Shown one piece after another: positions 3,346 to 18,436 of a stretch of DNA of 18,436 bases; position 1 is the stretch's first letter, and every line of letters begins with the position of its first letter. The notes beneath the pieces are model-generated. The model had not been told where the DNA came from and did not search any database. It was given only the letters and a program-made list of their open reading frames with translations. A program made the position numbers and the translations under genes. The DNA is from Candidatus Jordarchaeales archaeon (lineage in GTDB: Archaea > Asgardarchaeota > Jordiarchaeia > Jordiarchaeales > Freyrarchaeaceae). The stretch is from positions 1-18,436 of the forward strand of contig JAWCFL010000032.1 in NCBI GenBank assembly GCA_038858525.1. The letters are read 5' to 3'.

Positions 3346-6021
3346 TTAACCTGTTGCTATACGCTTAGTGCGTCGTTCTATATAGTCGTCAATAATGGCA
3401 TCGATGTTAACGGCTTTTCCATTCCAACTCTTAGTTGGATCAGTTAGGTCTTCGCCATATTTGAACTGTATAATGCTTCCTGTTGAGTCTCTTACGGTAC
3501 CATCGTACTCTACTTTCACGTCTTGGAGGGCGTTGATTAGTCTGCGTTGTAAATATCCTGACTGTGATGTTTTGACTGCTGTGTCAACCAAACCTTCTCT
3601 TCCACCCATTGCATGGAAGAAAAATTCTATCGGGTCTAGTCCCTTTCTGTAATGCGCTGCTACAAATCCTCTTGACTTAGCGCTTAGGTCTCCTTTTTTA
3701 AAGTGTGGAAGAGTTCTCCCTTTATACCCTCTATGTATCCGTTGCCCTCTAACTGATTGTTGCCCTACGCATGCGGCCATCATTGCTAGGTTGAGAAGGG
3801 TGCCACGTGCTCCTGTTACTGCCATTATTACGGCGTGATTGTCTGGACCTAAATATTCACTGGCCACTTCGCCAGCCTTGTCTCTGACGTTGTTGAGTTC
3901 CTGCATTATTAGCATTTCAAGGCTTTCCTCTATCGTGCGCCCGGGTAGAGCCTCAAGTTCTCCTCTTCTATAGGTCTCTATTAATTCGTTAACTTTTTTC
4001 TCTCCTTCTTTTAATATTTCATTTATGCGCTGAACAGCCTCTTCGGGTATTTCTATGTCGTCTAAACCGAGGGTAAATCCCTTTTTAGTTATAAATCTGA
4101 TCAGCATACGTGTTACTGAGTCGATGAATTTCCTTGCCGCATCAGAGCCGAACTCCTTTGCTATTTTGTGGAGAAGGCTTTCAGGTACTCCTGCTCCGAA
4201 GGCGTTTTTGTCTATTACGCCTTTTTGAAGGACGCCGTCTACGACAACTACGTATGCGTCATGTGGACAATTCTCTTTAAGGCATACATCGCAATGTTTA
4301 CATGCCTTTGACTTGAAACGCGCGTTAAGCCCTTTAGGTAGGGTGAGGCTGAAGATCTGCTTCCCTGTCCAGAGGGGGGTTGGCTCTGTTATTGCTGGTG
4401 GAGGAAGTTCTGTTACACCGGCTGCGAGAGCCAGCTCACAGGCATCCTCCTTTTTGAGTAAAGTTTGCTCTTTAGTTAAAAGATAAGCAGCAGAAATGAA
4501 GTCTTGGATCCCGCCTATGATTGGCCCTCCATACCGTGGACTTAGAATATGTTCTTGGACTCTCATCAGTATGTAAGCTTCAACTCTGGCTTCCTCAGAC
4601 TGAGGCACATGGAGATTCATTTCATCTCCGTCAAAGTCAGCATTGTAGGGAGGGCAAACGCATAGGTTTAGTCTGAATGTTTTATATGGCATGACCCTGA
4701 CTTCATGAGCCATAATGCTCATTCTGTGGAGGGACGGTTGCCTGTTGAAGAGTACGATGTCTCCGTCATTGAGGTGACGTTCAACTATGCAGCCGGGGGT
4801 GAGGTCTTCAGCAACCTTGCTCCTGTTTTTGACGAATCTTAAATCGATGCGCCTACCGTCATTTCGGATAACGTAATTTGCTCCTGGATGTTCATCTGGG
4901 TCTCTCATAACTAGTTCTTTCATTTCTTCAATGTTAAGTTCAGTTACTCTTTCGGGTATAGTTAGGATTTTCGCTACTTCGATGGGGACACCTACCTCGT
5001 TTATTCCGATGTTCGGATCAGGGGATATTACTGTTCTAGCCGAGAAATCGACGCGTTTGCCTGAGAGGTTGCTTCTGAAGCGTCCTTCTTTGCCTTTCAA
5101 CCTCTGGGAAAGTGTTCTTAAAGCTCTGCCTGAACGGTGACGAGCGGGAGGTATGCCGGAGATTTCGTTATCAAAGTATGTAGTTACGTGATATTGAAGT
5201 AGCTCCCATAAGTCTTCGACGATAAGCTGGGGAGCGCCTGCTTCGATGTTTTCTCTTAAACGCTGATTTATTCGTATTATGTCGACGAGTTTATGTGTTA
5301 GATCATCTTCTGACCTAACACCGGACTCAAGTGTTATGCTTGGTCTAACACATACGGGGGGAACGGGAAGGACTGTAAGAACCATCCATTCAGGACGAGC
5401 ATACTTGGGATTTATACCGAGGAGCTTGCAATCTGTATCGGGTATGCGTTCACATCTTTCTCGTACATCGATTGGTGTAAGCCTTATAGAGCCAACTTCT
5501 GTTTCTTCGTAAAATGCGGTTGGTTTCTCTAGTCTTACCTTGCGTTGAGTTTCACCACAGTGAGGACAGGTTACAGTTCTGGACGCGCGGCGAAAAACTT
5601 CTTCAGCAACTTCGTCGCTTAGTTCGCCTGTTTCTGCTTCATGCTTCTCCATCTCTGCTAAGAAGAATTTTATTTCATCTTCTGGAAGTAGAAGTCTGTA
5701 GCAACGCCAACATGTAGCTCTTAAAACTTTATGAAGAATTTTAACAAAACCAACATGGATTACTGGACGGACGAGTTCAATGTGCCCGAAGTGTCCTATA
5801 CATTCACCTACAGGATTACCGCATAGTTTACAGCGACGTCCTGGCTCTACTGTTCCTAAGCGTTCATCCATCAGTCCTGTTTCTATTGGGGTACCGTCTT
5901 CATCATACGTATCTGGCGTGATTATTCGGGTGGCTGACATACGTCTTATTTCGTCTGGGGAAAGAACACTAAATCTTATTGAGTGAATCCTCTTGGTGAA
6001 CCTGAAAGTCACGCTACACAC
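3346..6021 (-). CDS. rpoA1: DNA-directed RNA polymerase subunit A' (Rpo1N)
   Basis: 891 aa; catalytic NADFDGDEMNLH, RFRSNLSGKRVDFSARTVISPDPN, FNRQPSLHRMSIMAHEVRV, zinc motif CKLCGNPVGECIGHFGH. Confidence 0.97.
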   Translation of the reverse strand: MCSVTFRFTKRIHSIRFSVLSPDEIRRMSATRIITPDTYDEDGTPIETGLMDERLGTVEPGRRCKLCGNPVGECIGHFGHIELVRPVIHVGFVKILHKVLRATCWRCYRLLLPEDEIKFFLAEMEKHEAETGELSDEVAEEVFRRASRTVTCPHCGETQRKVRLEKPTAFYEETEVGSIRLTPIDVRERCERIPDTDCKLLGINPKYARPEWMVLTVLPVPPVCVRPSITLESGVRSEDDLTHKLVDIIRINQRLRENIEAGAPQLIVEDLWELLQYHVTTYFDNEISGIPPARHRSGRALRTLSQRLKGKEGRFRSNLSGKRVDFSARTVISPDPNIGINEVGVPIEVAKILTIPERVTELNIEEMKELVMRDPDEHPGANYVIRNDGRRIDLRFVKNRSKVAEDLTPGCIVERHLNDGDIVLFNRQPSLHRMSIMAHEVRVMPYKTFRLNLCVCPPYNADFDGDEMNLHVPQSEEARVEAYILMRVQEHILSPRYGGPIIGGIQDFISAAYLLTKEQTLLKKEDACELALAAGVTELPPPAITEPTPLWTGKQIFSLTLPKGLNARFKSKACKHCDVCLKENCPHDAYVVVVDGVLQKGVIDKNAFGAGVPESLLHKIAKEFGSDAARKFIDSVTRMLIRFITKKGFTLGLDDIEIPEEAVQRINEILKEGEKKVNELIETYRRGELEALPGRTIEESLEMLIMQELNNVRDKAGEVASEYLGPDNHAVIMAVTGARGTLLNLAMMAACVGQQSVRGQRIHRGYKGRTLPHFKKGDLSAKSRGFVAAHYRKGLDPIEFFFHAMGGREGLVDTAVKTSQSGYLQRRLINALQDVKVEYDGTVRDSTGSIIQFKYGEDLTDPTKSWNGKAVNIDAIIDDYIERRTKRIATG

Positions 6022-7208: not shown

Positions 7209-7628
7209 ATGTCTAAAGATAAGCTCTTGGCTTTAACTCAGATCTTGGAGAACATGAATAAAAAGGGAGGATTTTCGGCTAGTGTTATTTCGGGAGAGGA
7301 TGGATTGGTTGTAGCGGAAGCAAGCAGTTCTGGGAACAAACAAGTTATTGCAGCGATGGCTAGTCTAGCTCATTCGACTGCTATGAGAGTTAAAGACCAA
7401 ATAGGGCTTGGGGACTTAGAGCAGGTAACCATAGAGACAAGTGACGGGATCATAGTTTTTAAGAGTGTAGAAATCCCTAAGAGAAAATTTATACTAGCAG
7501 CCATATTACCCATCTCAGCCAAACGGAGATTTGCCGATGCAGCATCTGTTCTCCTATTTAAGGACAGAAGATATGAGCGAATAGTGGATGATGCAGTGGA
7601 GGAAGTAAAAGAAATATTCAAGGAATGA
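7209..7628 (+). CDS. Roadblock/LC7 domain-like protein
   Basis: 139 aa; GGFSASVISGEDGLVVAEASS... QVTIETSDGIIVFKSV... pattern of Roadblock/LC7 (MglB/Ragulator-like) folds. Confidence 0.65.
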   Translation: MSKDKLLALTQILENMNKKGGFSASVISGEDGLVVAEASSSGNKQVIAAMASLAHSTAMRVKDQIGLGDLEQVTIETSDGIIVFKSVEIPKRKFILAAILPISAKRRFADAASVLLFKDRRYERIVDDAVEEVKEIFKE

Positions 7629-7944
7629 ATCTATTTTCATTTTTTGGAATAAAGGCCTTAATCGAGTATCAACTTCAAATATTTTTAAGTTTAGCTGAAT
7701 CAATGAAATTAAGAGGGACGTCATAGTCTTGAGGGCTGCTTTTAGTTTGCCGATAAACTTGTTTCATTGTTTCTGGTATTTGTTAGTGAATAAGGGAGGG
7801 TATCATTTTCATTTAGTTCGATGCTGAAGGCGTGATTTACTTAATTGTTTAAACTTTAGACATAAGCGAAATAGAATTCCTCCTTAAATGTTAGGAGACA
7901 TTTATTTAGTGGTAGCGGTAATTAATGAGAGAAAAGTTAGGAAG

Positions 7945-8601
7945 TTACTTGGAAAGTTGAGAACTAAAGAAGAGTTTCAAGGTGTTTATTACTTCCTTTG
8001 TGTTCTTGCCAAGAGAAAGACCTTCCGTTAAAAGGTCATTAAGATGATCTATGTCGATTTCAACTGTTGGAGACGAGTATACTTTAACGGGTATACCTCT
8101 CGCTTTAGAGCTGGAGACATGTTTCTTGAAACTGTCCTCTCCGAATTGTGGGGGAAGAATGCCTGGCGGCTTCATAAAAAGGGCATTGGTTCCGCCTGAT
8201 CTCGACTGAGAGATAACTATAACTTCTTGGTCTTGTTCACCTAACTCTACAATGTTCAATATGTCTTTAGGTTTAATGAAGGGTAAGTCTGCAGGTAAAA
8301 CAAGGACAGAATCCGCGTTACATCTAGTGCAGAAGTCTATTCCAAGTTGAATTGCCTTGTTTAAGTCGCATGGAAGACGTTCAAAAATAAAATTTACTCC
8401 TTTAAGAGAGTTTACAATGCTCAAATCAGGTGTTACAATATGGATCTCCTTAAATATCTCTGATCTTTTTGCGATACCAATCACGTCAAGAAGCATTGCA
8501 AAGCTTAGTTTACGCCGCTCACTTAGAGAAAGAAAGGGTGACAGCCTTGACTTCGCTGCATCTAACCCCTTAAAGGGAATTACCAGGTGAATATTGTTCA
8601 T
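7945..8601 (-). CDS. cofC: 2-phospho-L-lactate (or phosphoenolpyruvate) guanylyltransferase
   Basis: 218 aa; VIPFKGLDAAKSRLSPFLSLSERRKLSFAMLLDV, LVLPADLPFIKPKDI, FGEDSFKKHVSSSKARG; adjacent to cofE/cofD. Confidence 0.88.
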   Translation of the reverse strand: MNNIHLVIPFKGLDAAKSRLSPFLSLSERRKLSFAMLLDVIGIAKRSEIFKEIHIVTPDLSIVNSLKGVNFIFERLPCDLNKAIQLGIDFCTRCNADSVLVLPADLPFIKPKDILNIVELGEQDQEVIVISQSRSGGTNALFMKPPGILPPQFGEDSFKKHVSSSKARGIPVKVYSSPTVEIDIDHLNDLLTEGLSLGKNTKEVINTLKLFFSSQLSK

Positions 8602-8783
8602 TCACATCATCTCCTACATTTGTAAAAAGTGTCTTTCGATGTGAAAGAAGCTACTATAATGAATACTTTGCTGGAGTTAAAAATGCATTATAATAAGGAG
8701 GAAGGATTCGTTTAGGGAGGAATTTTTTATTTAGGGTAACTTGATAAGCGACTATCGCGTCTTTCTGATTTGGAAATGGAACT

Positions 8784-9551
8784 TTGGAGGTGTCAGAGAT
8801 TAAGAAAATAGAAATAATAGGAATTAATGGTTTGCCTCTGGTGAGGGAAGGGGACGATATAGCTAAGCTGATCGTTGAAGCAGCAAGGAAACAGGGTATC
8901 GAAATACTTAACAACGACATTATTGTGGTGGCTCAATCTATAGTTTCTAAGGCTGAAGGTATGATTGTTGACCTGTCTAAGGTGGATCCTTCTCCTTTCT
9001 CGATTACAATAAGTAGGCAGGTTGGCAAATCTCCACAGATGGTCGAGGTTATTTTGAGGGAAGCTAGAAGAATAGTTAAAATGCGGCACGTCATTATCAC
9101 GGAAACGACGCATGGTTTTATCTGCGCCAATTCAGGAGTGGATGAATCCAACGTGTCAGGTGGAGGGAAAGTCACTCTTCTTCCTCGAGATCCTGATGAG
9201 TCTGCAAGACGCATTAGGGATGGAATTTTTAAACTTACGGGTGCAGATGTTGCAGTTATAATTTCAGATACTCATGGAAGACCCTTTAGAGAGGGGGCGA
9301 TAAATGTGGCCGTGGGGGTGGCGGGACTGAAACCGGTTTGGGATAGGCGTGGAGAAAAGGACTTGTACGGATATGTTTTGCATTCAACATTTGTTGCTGT
9401 GGCTGACGAATTAGCCTCAGCTGCAGAGTTAATTATGGGTCAAGCCGATGAGGGGATTCCAGTAGTCATTATACGAGGATACCAGTATATTAAAGGTGAG
9501 GGAAGTTACAAGGATCTTTTAATGCCTCCTGAAAGAGACCTTTTCAGGTGA
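8784..9551 (+). CDS. cofE: Coenzyme F420-0:L-glutamate ligase
   Basis: 255 aa; GINGLPLVREGDDIAKLI, NSGVDESNVSGGG, ISDTHGRPFREGAINVAVGVAGLKP. TTG start; GTG two codons downstream is an alternative. Confidence 0.92.
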   Translation: MEVSEIKKIEIIGINGLPLVREGDDIAKLIVEAARKQGIEILNNDIIVVAQSIVSKAEGMIVDLSKVDPSPFSITISRQVGKSPQMVEVILREARRIVKMRHVIITETTHGFICANSGVDESNVSGGGKVTLLPRDPDESARRIRDGIFKLTGADVAVIISDTHGRPFREGAINVAVGVAGLKPVWDRRGEKDLYGYVLHSTFVAVADELASAAELIMGQADEGIPVVIIRGYQYIKGEGSYKDLLMPPERDLFR

Positions 9552-10484
9552 GTGTCATTGATCACGCTGCTAACAGGGGGCACCGGTGGGCTGAAGCTAC
9601 TTAAAGGATTTCTTGAGGTTCTTCCCCAGGAGGAAATCGCCGTTATTGTGAATACGGGTGACGATATAGAGCTTCATGGGCTTTTTATAAGTCCAGATTT
9701 GGATAGTGCAGTTTATCTGGTTGCGGGATTGCTAGATGAAGAAAGATTTTGGGGCGTGAGGGGTGACACATTTAACTGCCTTGAGATGATGAGCAAGTAT
9801 GGTTTGCCCTCTTGGTTTGCTTTAGGGGATCGTGACTTAGCAACACATATATGGAGAACTTATCTTATCAGGAACGGTTTCCAACTTTCAGAGGTTACAA
9901 AACTTATGTGTGACAAGCTTAATGTTAAAGCGAGAATTATGCCTATGACGAACGATAAAGTGCAAACGTATATAGATACTGATTTAGGCGTTCTCTCATT
10001 GCAGGAATTTTGGGTTAAATACAGAGGACAACCAAGTGTTTTTGGGGTCGAATATAGAGGAGCCGAATATGCAAGTGCGCCCCCTGAGGTTATTGATGCC
10101 TTGAGGAAGTCTGAGGCGGTTATCGTGGGACCCAGCAATCCCATCACAAGCATAGCGCCCATATTAGCTATTAGGGACATAAAAGAGACCCTTAAAGAGA
10201 TAAGCTGCAAAAAAATTGCTGTTAGTCCTATAATAGGAGGAAGAGCGGTAAGCGGGCCAGCAGCGAAGCTAATGCAAAGCTTAGGCTTAGAGGTTTCCCC
10301 GCTAGGGGTGGCATGCTTCTACAAGGAGATAATAGACGTATTGGTACTCGACAGGACAGATGCTTCATTAGTGGATGTAATAAGGTCTGTTGGTGTTATA
10401 CCATATGCTACAAACATTTTAATGATGAACGATGAGGATAGACGACGTCTCGCTCTTGAAATTATAGAGCTGGTGAGTGAATGA
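9552..10484 (+). CDS. cofD: 2-phospho-L-lactate transferase
   Basis: 310 aa; TLLTGGTGGLKLLKGF, VNTGDDIELHGLFISPDLDSAVYLVAG, FGLPSWFALGDRDLATH-type region, GPSNPITSIAPILAI; GTG start abuts the cofE stop. Confidence 0.93.
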   Translation: MSLITLLTGGTGGLKLLKGFLEVLPQEEIAVIVNTGDDIELHGLFISPDLDSAVYLVAGLLDEERFWGVRGDTFNCLEMMSKYGLPSWFALGDRDLATHIWRTYLIRNGFQLSEVTKLMCDKLNVKARIMPMTNDKVQTYIDTDLGVLSLQEFWVKYRGQPSVFGVEYRGAEYASAPPEVIDALRKSEAVIVGPSNPITSIAPILAIRDIKETLKEISCKKIAVSPIIGGRAVSGPAAKLMQSLGLEVSPLGVACFYKEIIDVLVLDRTDASLVDVIRSVGVIPYATNILMMNDEDRRRLALEIIELVSE

Positions 10485-11272
10485 GAACTATTTTGAAGCG
10501 GCGAGTTATACTTGCAGCTATGGCAGGAATATGTGATGGTGATTTTTGCTTCCGAGCAGCAAAATCAGGAGCAGGAATGGTGACACTTGGAGGGTTAAAT
10601 TTCGATGAAGGAACAGTTTTGGCTGGCGAAATGATAAGAAGAAGGGGGCGTAAGGAGTTTGATGTGAAGCTTGACTCGCTCGAGAGGTTTCTTAGGGAAG
10701 AGGTAAGTAAAGCTTTGAAGGGAGGCGCCCCTGTTGCTATTAATGTGCGGGCAGCAACTTTGAGGGGTATTCTTTTCGCTGGTAATTTAGTATCAAAAAG
10801 CGGGGCTACAGCACTGGAGATAGATGCGCACTGTCGGCAACCCGAGATGATGGCGGTAGGAGCGGGACAAGCACTTTTAAATAGATTAGAAACGCTTTCG
10901 GAGTGGATAATGTGTCTTAAGGAATCTTTTAATGTAAAAGTCATTCTTAAGTGGAGAGGTAACGTGGTGGATGATTTAACTGTAGCAAAGCTGGCTGAGA
11001 AAGCTGGTGCTGACGCAATACATATAGACGCTATGAAGCAAGGAGTGGAATGTGGAGATTTAGAGTTAATCAGGAAAATTTCTGAAAACGTAAATGTTTT
11101 CTTGATAGGTAATAACTCTGTTAGGGACGTTAATAGTGCCATCGAAATGTTAAATTCTGGTGCTGATGCAGTTTCTATTGCTCGAGCAACGCTAAATGAC
11201 CCTTCAGTAGTGGGAAAAATAGCGTTAGGTGTCGAAGAAAAAATGAAACAAAAAGAAAACTTAAAATTTTAG
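10481..11272 (+). CDS. tRNA-dihydrouridine synthase-like / FMN-binding TIM-barrel protein
   Basis: 263 aa; MAGICDGDFCFRAAKSGAGMVTLGG N-terminus and GADAIHIDA...FLIGNNSV...GADAVSIARATL C-terminal barrel; 4-nt ATGA overlap with cofD. Confidence 0.7.
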   Translation: MRTILKRRVILAAMAGICDGDFCFRAAKSGAGMVTLGGLNFDEGTVLAGEMIRRRGRKEFDVKLDSLERFLREEVSKALKGGAPVAINVRAATLRGILFAGNLVSKSGATALEIDAHCRQPEMMAVGAGQALLNRLETLSEWIMCLKESFNVKVILKWRGNVVDDLTVAKLAEKAGADAIHIDAMKQGVECGDLELIRKISENVNVFLIGNNSVRDVNSAIEMLNSGADAVSIARATLNDPSVVGKIALGVEEKMKQKENLKF

Positions 11273-11309: not shown

Positions 11310-11744
11310 TTAGGAAGAATTATTTGTACTTTTCTTAGGCGTCATCGTACCGGATACTATCTTTGAGATTATTTCCTTTTGCGCCGCTCTTACTGCACTA
11401 GAAAAATTGAAACCACGAGTATCCATTCCCAGTTCATCGATGACGTCTCCGTAACTGTTCTCGTTTACTATTTTTATAAGAATTTCAGTAATGTCGTAAC
11501 GTTCTCCATGGAAACGCACCGTGATCTTATAAGCTTCCCAGTCAACTTCAGCACCATAAATGTCTCTTTGAATGTTTATTGCGTCCGCCACGGTCAATTT
11601 AGGATTAGAACTCAGTATTTCTTCAATTGAAGGTATTTTCACACCTTCAAGAGAAAGTAGGATACGCTGAATAAGCATACCCATAAGCCAGCAACGATTA
11701 AATCGGCCTTTCCAAGGCTTATTAGACAAACACCCACTTCCCAA
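11310..11744 (-). CDS. Hypothetical protein
   Basis: Up to 144-aa ORF; the true start may be at an internal Met near LMGMLIQRILLS. No family recognised. Confidence 0.55.
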   Translation of the reverse strand: MGSGCLSNKPWKGRFNRCWLMGMLIQRILLSLEGVKIPSIEEILSSNPKLTVADAINIQRDIYGAEVDWEAYKITVRFHGERYDITEILIKIVNENSYGDVIDELGMDTRGFNFSSAVRAAQKEIISKIVSGTMTPKKSTNNSS

Positions 11745-11876: not shown

Positions 11877-12056
11877 TTAAAAAATTCCGTTAAAAAGGTT
11901 GTTCAGGTAATTGATTATGTTTGTTGCTATACTTCCTGACCAGTTAAAAACGCCGAACATTATGTTTAGCATTATGGCTAAACCTAAAATTGATAGGCCA
12001 ATTAAGATGGCTTCTTCTACGATAGGAGATCCTTCCTCGTTCTTTATTAATTCCAA
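11877..12056 (-). CDS. Small single-TM, type IV/Flp pilin-like protein (ORF not in supplied track)
   Basis: TTG start, 59 aa: MELIKNEEGSPIVEEAILIGLSILGLAIMLNIMFGVFNWSGSIATNIINYLNNLFNGIF*. Strong SD GGAGGGT at 12070-12064 (minus), TATA-like TTTAAATATT at 12110-12101. EEG|SPIVEE followed by hydrophobic helix. Confidence 0.6.
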   Translation of the reverse strand: MELIKNEEGSPIVEEAILIGLSILGLAIMLNIMFGVFNWSGSIATNIINYLNNLFNGIF

Positions 12057-12100: not shown

Positions 12101-12110
12101 AATATTTAAA
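12101..12110 (-). promoter_or_regulatory. TATA box for the pilin-like small gene
   Basis: Minus-strand TTTAAATATT about 50 nt upstream of the TTG start. Confidence 0.45.
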
Positions 12111-12173
12111 CACCACAGTTGTTGCGGCGTACTATCATTTAACAAAATCATCAAGCTAAAATGAAAAAGACAT

Positions 12174-12203
12174 ATTTTTGTCAACTATATTGTTGATAAA
12201 AAT
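12174..12203. repeat. Inverted repeat upstream of the actin gene
   Basis: ATTTTTGTCAAC (12174-12185), spacer TATATT, GTTGATAAAAAT (12192-12203): 12-bp arms with one mismatch. Confidence 0.6.
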
Positions 12204-12307
12204 GATGTTCAAAAAATTAAAATAGAAGTATAGCACAAATAATATTCTGAAAAATGGAAAAAGTTGAAGTAATTCTTGAAAAATGAAAATGAAGGGGACG
12301 TGGGAAA

Positions 12308-13453
12308 GTGACATATGAGGAAGAGATGATCGCTGCAAAGCCCCTTGTGTTGGATAATGGAACCGGGTTAACTAAGAACGGGTTTGCAGGAGAGGACCAA
12401 CCTCGCTCCGTATGGCCAACTTGTATAGGATATCCTAAGTATACATCAATAATGACGGACGTAGAACACCATACGAGGGAGTATTACATAGGGGAGGAAG
12501 CACTTAACCTGAGAGGAGTTCTTAGGCTGGTTTATCCTATAGAGCACGGCGTGGTGACAGACTGGGACGCCATGGAGAAGATTTGGCATTACACGTTCTT
12601 CAATGACTTGAGAGTAGATCCCTCAGAGCACCCTATTCTCCTAACTGAGCCACCGTTAAACCCGCGTGAAAACAGAGAAAAAATGGCTGAAATAATGTTT
12701 GAAACGTTTAACGCGCCAGCTGTTTATGTTGCAATGCAAGCAGTCCTTTCACTTTATGCGTCAGGAAGAACAACCGGACTTGTAGTAGACTCAGGAGATG
12801 GAGTAACGCACATTGTGCCAATTTACGAAGGATTCGCGTTAACGCATGCGATAACGAGGATAGATCTCGCAGGAAGAGACATAACTGAGTATTTAAGGAG
12901 GCTCTTAAGGCAACGAGGTTACAGTTTCGTCTCAACAGCTGAAAAAGAAATAGTTAGAGACATAAAGGAGAAGCTCTGTTATGTGGCTTTAGACCCTGAA
13001 AAGGAACTTAAGCTTGCTGAGAAAGTTTCAGGAATAGAAAAGACATACGTGTTGCCAGACGGAGAGACCATTACTGTCGGCGCTGAAAGATTCCTAGCAC
13101 CGGAGGTTTTCTTTAACCCAGGAGTTATCGGGCTAGACTCACCACCACTGGACGAGGTTATAGTTGACGCTGTCAGAAAATGCGACGTTGACTTAAGAAG
13201 AGAGCTTTACGGCAACATAGTTCTCTCGGGAGGATCAACAATGTTTCCGGGGCTAAGAGAAAGATTGCACAAGGAGTTATCAGAGCTCGTCCCAGAAAAT
13301 GTCGAAATTAAGATAATAGCGCCTCCAGAAAGACAGTACAGTGTTTGGATTGGAGGGTCAATACTAGCTTCTCTAAGAACATTCCAGAAAATGTGGGTTA
13401 CAAGAAAGGAATATCAAGAAGGAGGAGCTGCAGTTATTCACAGATGCTTCTAA
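12308..13453 (+). CDS. Actin family protein, highly eukaryote-like (Asgard/lokiactin type)
   Basis: 381 aa; [153 protein letters not shown]-terminal HRCF. Confidence 0.96.
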
Positions 13454-13606
13454 GTTTTGTACTTTCCTTTTCCTTTTTTATGATTACATTTTCTTGCGAG
13501 ACTTACTAAAGATAATATAAAGGAGAATGTTTGCGAATTAGGACGAAACACGTAAGGTTTTTCTTAAATTCTCTGGAAGATATCTCTCAAAAAGTGCAAA
13601 GGATTT

Positions 13607-17157: not shown

Positions 17158-17296
17158 CATGTAACAAGTTAAAGTATCGTCTAAGTTTTTATAGAAAGGG
17201 GAAATAGGCTTCCTGAAGCAAAAATGCAACACCGCAGTAATCTTTTTAATAGGATAGTAATCATGGGTTTGTCGAAGTTAGTTGGGGGTAAAAGTG

Positions 17297-18436
17297 GTGG
17301 CGAAGATAGTTATTATCGGGGCCGGGGCTGCGGGAACAACAGCAGGAATATGGGCAAGGAAAACAGATAGGAAGGCGGAGATAACATTAGTGACAAAGGA
17401 GAAGTATCCGGAGTATTCTCGGTGCGGTCTTCCATACACCATATCAAAGCATATTTCAGAGTTTACAAACCTCATAACGCATGACGCTGGATGGTATTCG
17501 AGTTTTGGAAAAATGAATTTACTACTAGGAACAGAAGCAACAAACATAAACGTAAAAGATAGAACAGTAGCAATTAAAAACTTGCAGAGCGGCGAAGAAA
17601 AAACGCTTGAATATGATGCGCTAGTAATAGCTACGGGCTCTAGACCGGCTTTTCCACCTATAAAGGGAATAGAAGGAAAAAGTAATGTTTACTCGTTAAG
17701 AACTATAGATGACGCAATGGCAATTCATGAGGCGGCAAAGAAAAGTAAAAGGTGTGTTGTTGTAGGCGCAGGATTAATTGGTGTAGAGACAACGGAGGCG
17801 CTAGTTGAGCTTGGAGTAGAGGTAACCCTCGTTGAGTTCTTGCCAAGCGTTCTTCCATTGATGATTGACGCCGACATGGCGGACATGGTAGAGGACGCGC
17901 TCAAAGAGCATGGGGTAAAAGTATACACGAATACTGCCGTGAGCGAGCTAATAGGTGAAACAAGGGCGGAGAAAGTCGTCTTAAAGAATAGAAATACTGG
18001 AGAGGAAGAAAGAATACCTACGGATTTCGTTGTGATATCTGCAGGAGTGAGGCCTAATACTGAGTTGGCGGTAAAAGCGGGAGTAGCTTTGGGAAGCACC
18101 AAGTATATAAAAGTCGATTCGCGGGCGCGAACCAATATTGAGGGAATATACGCAGCGGGGGACTGTACAGAATATGTTGATTTCGTAACAGGCCAACCTG
18201 TAGCAATAGGCATGGGAACAATAGCTGTGAGGCAAGGCAAGGTAGCAGGAATAAACGCAGCCGGTGGGGACGCTGAAATGCCTAAGGGTGTATTGCTTAC
18301 AAGGATAACGAAGGTTTTTGGGGTGGAAGTAGCAGCGGTAGGCCCTATTACAGACTCATTAGAAAAAACAGGAATAAAGCCGATAGTGGGCAAGATGACG
18401 TATTCGAGTAAGCCAGAGTATATGCCGGGCGGAAAA
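17297..18436 (+). CDS. FAD-dependent pyridine nucleotide-disulfide oxidoreductase (NADH oxidase/CoA-disulfide reductase-like), truncated by window end
   Basis: MAKIVIIGAGAAGTTAGIWARK FAD-binding motif, YSRCGLPYTISKHI redox Cys, ALVIATGSRP, CVVVGAGLIGVETTEALVELGVEVTLVE, IYAAGDCTEYVDFVTG; open to the last base, so absent from the ORF track. Confidence 0.9.
   Translation, partial: MAKIVIIGAGAAGTTAGIWARKTDRKAEITLVTKEKYPEYSRCGLPYTISKHISEFTNLITHDAGWYSSFGKMNLLLGTEATNINVKDRTVAIKNLQSGEEKTLEYDALVIATGSRPAFPPIKGIEGKSNVYSLRTIDDAMAIHEAAKKSKRCVVVGAGLIGVETTEALVELGVEVTLVEFLPSVLPLMIDADMADMVEDALKEHGVKVYTNTAVSELIGETRAEKVVLKNRNTGEEERIPTDFVVISAGVRPNTELAVKAGVALGSTKYIKVDSRARTNIEGIYAAGDCTEYVDFVTGQPVAIGMGTIAVRQGKVAGINAAGGDAEMPKGVLLTRITKVFGVEVAAVGPITDSLEKTGIKPIVGKMTYSSKPEYMPGGK

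Follow-up and report, generated by a model that had tools for sequence, protein, structure and literature searches.

A Jordarchaeales actin compared with lokiactins and eukaryotic actins

Lokiactin, the highly conserved actin of the Asgard archaea, has been studied since 2015 and holds a central place in the case for a dynamic actin cytoskeleton older than eukaryotes. An actin structure from Hodarchaeales is on deposit, and the profilins and gelsolins of Asgard archaea have also been characterised, mostly in assays with rabbit actin. The family is conserved in all Asgard classes and has already been imaged as filaments in cells: in Candidatus Lokiarchaeum ossiferum, twisted two-stranded Lokiactin filaments were labelled by antibody, with a rise of 27.9 Å and a twist of −167.7 (PMC9834061). 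Actin filaments are also present in cells of HC1 (10.1101/2025.02.26.640444), the cultured Hodarchaeales strain Candidatus Margulisarchaeum peptidophilum, and actin inhibitors have been reported to stop protrusion dynamics, with profilin and gelsolins co-precipitating with Lokiactin (10.1101/2025.11.30.690169). Here we describe the actin gene at positions 12308-13453 (+ strand) of an 18,436-nucleotide stretch of DNA, hereafter the window, which covers positions 1 to 18,436 of contig JAWCFL010000032.1 of a Candidatus Jordarchaeales archaeon. Both the exact protein and its family are already known, and this instance adds nothing to the argument about the origin of the cytoskeleton. Its practical value is that of a reliable taxonomic marker, which identifies the window as Asgard and specifically as Jordarchaeales. 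The modest new points are a confirmed GTG start codon, a promoter-like block that is conserved and contains a palindrome, and the clustering of the differences between lokiactins and eukaryotic actins in subdomain 2 and the D-loop (the DNase I-binding loop).

Family and host of the window actin

The gene is an unbroken open reading frame (ORF) with a GTG start and a TAA stop, and its product has 381 amino acids. The protein matched the Pfam Actin model PF00022 with 468 bits (E 2.8e-140, cut-off 27) over profile positions 5-407 of 410, and a PDB search returned actins at E values of 1e-164 to 4e-198. An earlier note on this DNA had listed a series of actin motifs, and all of them were found: the nucleotide loops (DNGTG at residue 16 and SGDGVTH at residue 162), YPIEHG at residue 76, where His80 aligns with actin His73, a 12-letter motif at residue 345, and the C-terminus, which reads HRCF (378-381) where the eukaryotic HRKCF has one residue more.

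A search of about 5.8 billion proteins returned full-length, 100% identical sequences annotated as "actin family protein [Candidatus Jordarchaeales archaeon]" (MEM1511856.1, MEM2155793.1, MEM2359983.1 and MEM2468093.1), encoded on 13 contigs of which the longest is 470,836 bp. The same 21-kb locus with the same gene order occurs on four contigs (175-470 kb) from four assemblies, and the window DNA is 99.8-99.99% identical to four Jordarchaeales contigs from metagenome-assembled genomes (MAGs). The order Jordarchaeales is placed in the kingdom Promethearchaeati (Asgard) by the NCBI taxonomy, and Freyarchaeia and Jordarchaeia are one lineage under two names (PMC11291895), here abbreviated Jord/Frey. 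These identities, and archaeal neighbours that include the split RNA polymerase subunit A', cofC, cofE and cofD, DUF2095 and an MJ0144-family protein, bear out the earlier proposal that the contig is probably Asgard.

We found that the window protein is closest to actins of other Asgard archaea. It is 77-83% identical to the lokiactins of Atabey-, Njord-, Hel-, Hod-, Heimdall- and Thorarchaeia, and it aligns without gaps to the lokiactin of the cultured Promethearchaeum syntrophicum MK-D1 (78%, 293/378) and to HC1 actin (PDB 9wc4), the best match with a solved structure (661 bits, 73% identity or 273/374, 89% positives). Two published peptides specific for L. ossiferum Lokiactin match it at 12/15 and 13/15 residues, respectively. 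Against yeast-type actin, BLASTP gave 63% identity (234 of 370 columns, 3 gap positions), and the mean identity to 26 conventional eukaryotic actins was 60.8%. The corresponding figure for 81 Asgard actins ranges from 58.7 to 62.6%, with the window protein at rank 14, so that about 61% identity to eukaryotic actins is ordinary for this family; a LokiActin has been reported to be 58% identical to rabbit actin (PMC12050087). Because the eukaryotic actins in the same set share 91% identity on average (minimum 80%), the description of the protein in the earlier note as nearly as actin-like as eukaryotic actins was overstated.

In a scan of one genome per prokaryotic species we retrieved 381 relatives, and the best 80 span all Asgard classes, save three oddly labelled MAGs. 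The contigs of these three (L011, L027 and L031) carry lokiactins under non-Asgard names, namely Thermoproteota archaeon S9B3_HD70 (97% identical to the window protein, on a 141-kb contig), Candidatus Deferrimicrobium sp. and a Bathyarchaeota bin (a 4-kb contig), and are probably mislabelled or misbinned. A library of representatives at 50% identity held no match more than 66% identical to the window protein and no separate Asgard-actin representative. Its best 150 matches were all actin-like proteins at least 37% identical to it, mostly unnamed. Lokiactins are thus absorbed into clusters with eukaryotic actin representatives and would go unseen in any work that relies on this library.

For phylogenetic placement, full-length actin domains from 191 retrieved sequences were aligned and cut to 124 taxa, and a neighbour-joining (NJ) tree was built and bootstrapped 200 times. 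In 97.5% of replicates the window protein and the other Asgard lokiactins formed one bipartition, and the Jord/Frey subgroup was recovered in 84.5%. The neighbours of the window protein were Jord/Frey sequences, next those of Atabey/Njord, and then the Hel/Loki-type and Heimdall/Hod sequences. The nearest nameable long branches outside the clade were divergent actin paralogues from Hermod-, Hod- and Promethearchaeota MAGs, and further long branches were eukaryotic actin-like proteins such as Arp-T2. The phylogeny that the earlier note had called for, run here without a named crenactin, thus placed the protein with lokiactins and not within the eukaryotic actins; published maximum-likelihood trees show lokiactins as sister to eukaryotic actin (PMC9834061).

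We also scored diagnostic positions, defined as columns at least 95% fixed in both groups with a differing state in lokiactins and eukaryotic actins, after excluding close kin of the window protein from the reference. Of the 34 positions obtained, the window protein is lokiactin-like at 32, eukaryotic at one (F207) and in a third state at one (H55), and 15 of these positions fall within subdomain 2 or the D-loop. A further 166 alignment columns are fixed to the same residue in lokiactins and eukaryotic actins.

We conclude, with a probability of about 0.95, that the window protein is a lokiactin, the Jordarchaeales orthologue of the highly conserved Asgard actin, and belongs to the same orthologous family as Lokiactin of L. 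ossiferum (UYP47028.1) and of P. syntrophicum MK-D1. The full-length profile match, the four-subdomain fold and the residues for ATP binding and hydrolysis place it in the actin family, and the clade grouping, the diagnostic residues (including a D-loop insertion of two residues) and the Asgard host genome place it among lokiactins. With a mean identity of 60.8%, a best identity of 63% and a position apart from the eukaryotic clade, it is not a conventional eukaryotic actin. Unlike other lokiactins, it carries lineage-specific substitutions such as W36, C39, H55 and F207, and its host class is hyperthermophilic.

An identity of 61-63% to eukaryotic actins is high, and lokiactins are not split from eukaryotic actins by clustering at 50%; both facts would also suit contamination from a eukaryote, or a eukaryotic actin gene that entered the assembly by recent transfer. 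We consider this very improbable. At least four independent assemblies contain the same locus, flanked on either side by archaeal genes, on contigs of 175-470 kb, and the actin gene is intronless, lies in an archaeal-type context of TATA and Shine-Dalgarno (SD) signals, and is indistinguishable from its neighbours in GC content (0.448), GC at third codon positions (0.414) and codon usage (r = 0.75 against the other genes). Its product is 77-83% identical to actins of other Asgard classes versus about 61% for eukaryotes, and both the 97.5% NJ split and the 32 lokiactin-like diagnostic positions separate it from eukaryotic actins. The earlier note had named two outcomes that would overturn its view, a tree grouping with crenactins and contamination, and neither occurred; contamination is excluded because the composition matches and the locus is contiguous across several assemblies.

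Asgard genomes encode extra actin paralogues, three besides Lokiactin in the case of L. ossiferum (PMC9834061), and divergent Asgard actins 50-55% identical to the window protein adjoin the lokiactin clade in the NJ tree. The gene could accordingly encode a divergent paralogue resembling an actin-related protein (Arp) and not the main cytoskeletal filament. Arps (Arp2, Arp3 and others) have characteristic insertions and divergence relative to actin. The window protein has no Arp-type insertions, with 3 gap positions against actin over 370 columns (named Arp2 and Arp3 were not in the comparison), aligns gap-free to the P. syntrophicum and HC1 lokiactins, and sits inside a tight, short-branched lokiactin clade, unlike the long-branched paralogues; we therefore regard an Arp-like identity as very unlikely. 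The divergent paralogues also have a patchy distribution, unlike lokiactin (PMC9834061).

It is hardly conceivable that the protein is of the crenactin or MreB type, with a likeness to eukaryotic actin limited to the fold. Crenactin of Pyrobaculum calidifontis (Thermoproteota) is regulated by arcadins and not by profilin or gelsolin. The window protein does show weak matches to MreB_Mbl (Pfam PF06723, 23.8 bits), to the crenactin equivalog model (NCBIfam NF053560, 50.8 bits, partial over residues 51-272), and to the MamK and BeeR models as secondary hits, as expected of any member of the actin superfamily. These fall short of the respective cut-offs of 27, 630, 400 and 530 bits, in contrast to the 468 bits against a cut-off of 27 for Actin. 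Crenactin is about 20% identical to actin (PMC5173319), versus 61-63% for the window protein, and the statement in the earlier note that the resemblance goes far beyond crenactin level is correct.

Structure and possible behaviour of the protein

Residues were mapped in standard actin numbering by alignment to yeast-type, metazoan and HC1 actins. The phosphate loops and catalytic residues are kept (D11, G13, G15, K18, Q137, D154, G156, D157, G158, V159 and H161), with a conservative S14 to T change that is also found in HC1, as are the nucleotide pocket residues R210, K213, E214, G301, G302, M305 and F306, with the changes T303S and K336Q. Equivalents of His73 and R177 are present. The hydrophobic target cleft, into which the D-loop of an adjacent subunit fits, is intact (Y143, G146, T148, I345, L346, L349, T351, F352 and M355), the W-loop is kept (Y166, E167, G168 and F169), and the hydrophobic plug (266-269) reads VIGL, compared with VLGL in yeast-type actin, FLGM in metazoan actin and MVGK in HC1. 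The D-loop segment (residues 51-60, 12458-12487, + strand) contains the lokiactin-specific insertion of two residues (H55 and T56) relative to eukaryotic actin, and D51, V52, H54, R57, E58, Y59 and Y60 are invariant across 30 Asgard actins. Lokiactins of other classes share this insertion, within the motif DVEH(Y/H)xREYY.

An AlphaFold model built with a diverse alignment of 50 sequences, including divergent actins, reached a predicted local distance difference test (pLDDT) score of 92.2 and a predicted TM-score (pTM) of 0.89, with low confidence only at the N-terminus and in the D-loop, its weakest internal part. An alignment restricted to 30 Asgard actins of about 80% identity gave an unusable model (pLDDT 36). 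Foldseek comparison of the confident model with G-actin structures gave TM-scores of 0.93-0.98 and root-mean-square deviations mostly of about 1-1.3 Å (full range 0.7-2 Å), including 0.95/0.98 and 1.2 Å against yeast actin 1yag, and all of the top 50 PDB structural matches were actins. The structure prediction that the earlier note had proposed returned an actin fold, and in the alignment the filament-contact residues are largely conserved. By alignment and by the model, the actin fold is intact and the full ATP-binding and hydrolysis apparatus is conserved.

The HC1 actin entry (9wc4) comprises seven chains and is probably a filament reconstruction. HC1 actin matches the window protein in D-loop length and in its catalytic residues; it comes from another Asgard class (Hodarchaeales), has E in place of R at position 113 and differs at the C-terminus. 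Eukaryotic actin (yeast Act1, 1yag and 8thx, and rabbit skeletal actin) shares the fold, and the nucleotide residues, His73, R177, cleft, W-loop and acidic N-terminus are identical or conserved. It differs in the absence of the two extra D-loop residues, in the HRKCF terminus and in the 34 fixed differences, which are concentrated in subdomain 2.

From homology to L. ossiferum Lokiactin and HC1 actin, we infer that the window protein would bind ATP and polymerise head-to-tail into a two-stranded, right-handed filament resembling F-actin, in which the D-loop of one subunit would enter the cleft of the next and ATP would be hydrolysed after assembly. Such filaments may act as a scaffold for the cell body and for protrusions of the membrane, and their turnover may be governed by profilin and by proteins of the gelsolin family whose genes lie elsewhere in the genome. 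Gelsolin-family proteins have been reported from Freyarchaeia genomes (PMC11291895), and Asgard profilins and gelsolins in the Jord/Frey class have literature support (PMC11291895; PMC10307638 supplement). Jordarchaeia are inferred to be bona fide hyperthermophiles that carry reverse gyrase (PMC10307638 supplement), and since the host is hyperthermophilic, assembly would be expected at roughly 80 °C. The fraction of the amino acids IVYWREL across all window proteins is 0.447, which predicts growth at about 84 °C and is consistent with the published hyperthermophily, although the GC content of the window is only 36-47%. The estimate uses the relation T = 937F − 335, reportedly that of Zeldovich et al. 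2007.

Several points weigh against this reading. Polymerisation, ATPase activity and partners are attributed to the window protein by analogy with its relatives. Interstrand contacts are altered relative to eukaryotic actin (K113R, E195Q and E241V), the D-loop is two residues longer, and K336Q lies at the adenine pocket, so that filament geometry or dynamics could differ in detail from those of eukaryotic actin. Neither the window nor the 21-kb loci contain a gene for profilin, gelsolin or a second actin, and the presence of profilin and gelsolin in the host genome therefore rests on the literature for the class. The IVYWREL fraction of the actin itself is no more thermophilic than that of soil and marine orthologues. 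Finally, the NJ tree contained no named Arp, crenactin or MreB outgroups, and deep relationships are beyond its reach.

Start codon, promoter-like block and downstream tract

The upstream region was aligned with those of related loci that encode actins with 94-97% identity to the window protein, and further with five Jord/Frey loci (four at 89-90% and one at 97%). In the close loci the start column reads GTG/ATG/ATG/GTG, and one locus has ACG at the in-frame codon 7, which is an ATG at 12326 in the window. Residues 4-6, an acidic EEE, are kept across Asgard classes. On the basis of this pattern and the conservation of EEE, we place the translation start at the GTG at 12308 and not at the ATG at 12326. 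An SD-like AGGGGA (GGRG) at 12293-12298 (+) lies 10-15 nt upstream of the GTG. A GGRG purine motif is found 10-13 nt upstream of the start in the 94-97% loci and GGAG or GAGG 7-13 nt upstream in the five further loci, giving an SD-like motif in 10 of 10 aligned sequences.

Farther upstream, an inverted repeat TCAAC-TATATT-GTTGA at 12181-12196, 112-127 nt before the start, is a candidate transcription-factor site. It is invariant or nearly so in five loci (actins 94-100% identical) amid diverged intergenic DNA. It occurs once in the window, a count that is not significant alone (at least one in 78 of 200 shuffles), and this conservation is its sole support. The palindrome is not recognisable in the 89-90% Jord/Frey group. 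It is followed at 12211-12225 (+), 83-97 nt upstream of the start, by AAAAAATTAAAATAG, an A-rich run resembling a B recognition element (BRE) and then a TATA-like box, invariant in the five loci. In archaea, transcription starts about 26 nt downstream of the TATA box, and by this spacing it may begin here near 12247, with a 5' untranslated region of about 60 nt. The block 12181-12225 as a whole is invariant in the closer group, with diverged flanks, is loosely recognisable in the 89-90% group, and is absent upstream of actin in the other Asgard classes examined. The remark in the earlier note about TATA and SD signals was therefore reasonable, as both the BRE/TATA-like block and the SD-like motif are conserved in related loci.

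Downstream, a T-rich tract, GTTTTGTACTTTCCTTTTCCTTTTTTA, occupies 13454-13480 (+), directly after the stop codon, and the gap to the next gene is 153 nt. The tract is probably an archaeal oligo-T terminator and the actin gene probably monocistronic. A scan for hairpin terminators found none of bacterial type, and the sigma-70 and hairpin scan is uninformative for an archaeon.

Tentatively, the window actin may rank among the most heat-stable polymers of the F-actin type, and its expression may depend on a lineage-specific transcription factor that binds the palindrome. If this were true, a heat-stable actin would be practical for in vitro reconstitution of Asgard actin dynamics, and the palindrome-binding factor would offer a first way into the regulation of an actin gene in an archaeon.

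By eye, the Helarchaeota locus L007 appears to contain a degenerate duplicate of the actin upstream region and first codons, at 7899-7950 and 7979-8030 (agaatgagttggtgaatttacacggagagaggaagtcc versus agaataaattggtgaattgacatggaagaagaagtcc).

Neighbouring genes in this and other Asgard loci

No conserved gene order around actin was found across the Asgard classes compared (Atabey, Heimdall and Hel loci), and no regulator adjoins the gene; as in the window, the lokiactin of other classes is a stand-alone gene. Within Jord/Frey, the loci keep a block of actin, radical SAM, DUF2095 and GTPase genes. Besides these, represented in the window by a B12-binding radical SAM protein, the archaeal DUF2095 and a YchF-related GTPase, the window carries hisG. 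The gene for RNA polymerase subunit A' (3346-6021, − strand; NF006336, 1457 bits) lies between hisG and the phosphoribosyl pyrophosphate synthetase gene. In most archaea the rpoB, A' and A'' genes form one operon. Here the A' gene stands alone, with rpoB or rpoA'' adjoining it neither in the window nor in the 21-kb loci of the MAGs, and its arrangement looks unusual. The F420 biosynthesis genes cofC (−), cofE (+) and cofD (+) at 7945-11272 are clustered with an MJ0144-family gene resembling dihydrouridine synthase (Dus), and the orientation of this cof-Dus block relative to actin is inverted in locus L008. A gene resembling coenzyme A (CoA)-disulfide reductase (17297-18436, +) extends past the end of the window and is missing from the ORF list; two ORFs that do appear there, 17278-17547 (−) and 17725-18393 (−), probably represent its antisense shadows. 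Comparison of the MAGs showed apparent indels in this downstream oxidoreductase gene, which seemed to be split in two of them (L001 15278-15375 and L003 15568-15666); these were rejected as an artefact of N runs at scaffold gaps. Rfam and tRNA scans of the window returned no matches.

Between the Dus-like gene and actin lies an ORF of unknown function (11310-11744, −), annotated at 110-144 amino acids with an ambiguous start and 65-83% conserved in related Jord/Frey loci. We considered it as a profilin and rejected this for want of evidence, as it had no Pfam match at E ≤ 10, no NCBIfam match and no meaningful PDB match. A 59-amino-acid ORF (11877-12056, −), a "hypothetical protein" in GenBank, is divergent from actin in orientation; its product is 69-90% identical in related loci even though the intergenic DNA has diverged, and Pfam and PDB searches with it gave no match. 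On reading, its N-terminus, MELIKNEEG/SPIVEEAILIGLSILGLAIM, has the look of a Flp or type IV pilin (Gly, Glu at +5 and a hydrophobic helix). A conserved TATA-like ATATTTAAACACCACA at 12101-12116 may be the promoter of this ORF.

A Roadblock/LC7 gene (7209-7628, +) lies about 5 kb from actin in the window, and the Heimdall and Hel loci also have Roadblock genes less than 7 kb from actin (L006 722-1105 and L007 3901-4947). Small GTPase genes of the Ras/Arf type lie 8-9 kb from actin in Jord and Atabey loci (L001-L004 at about 20385-20834 and L005 at 1-292). This proximity may be due to chance, given how strongly both families have expanded in Asgard genomes. In the Heimdallarchaeaceae locus L006, actin is immediately followed, on its own strand, by a gene for prefoldin-beta (9349-9693); in eukaryotes, prefoldin serves as a chaperone of actin.

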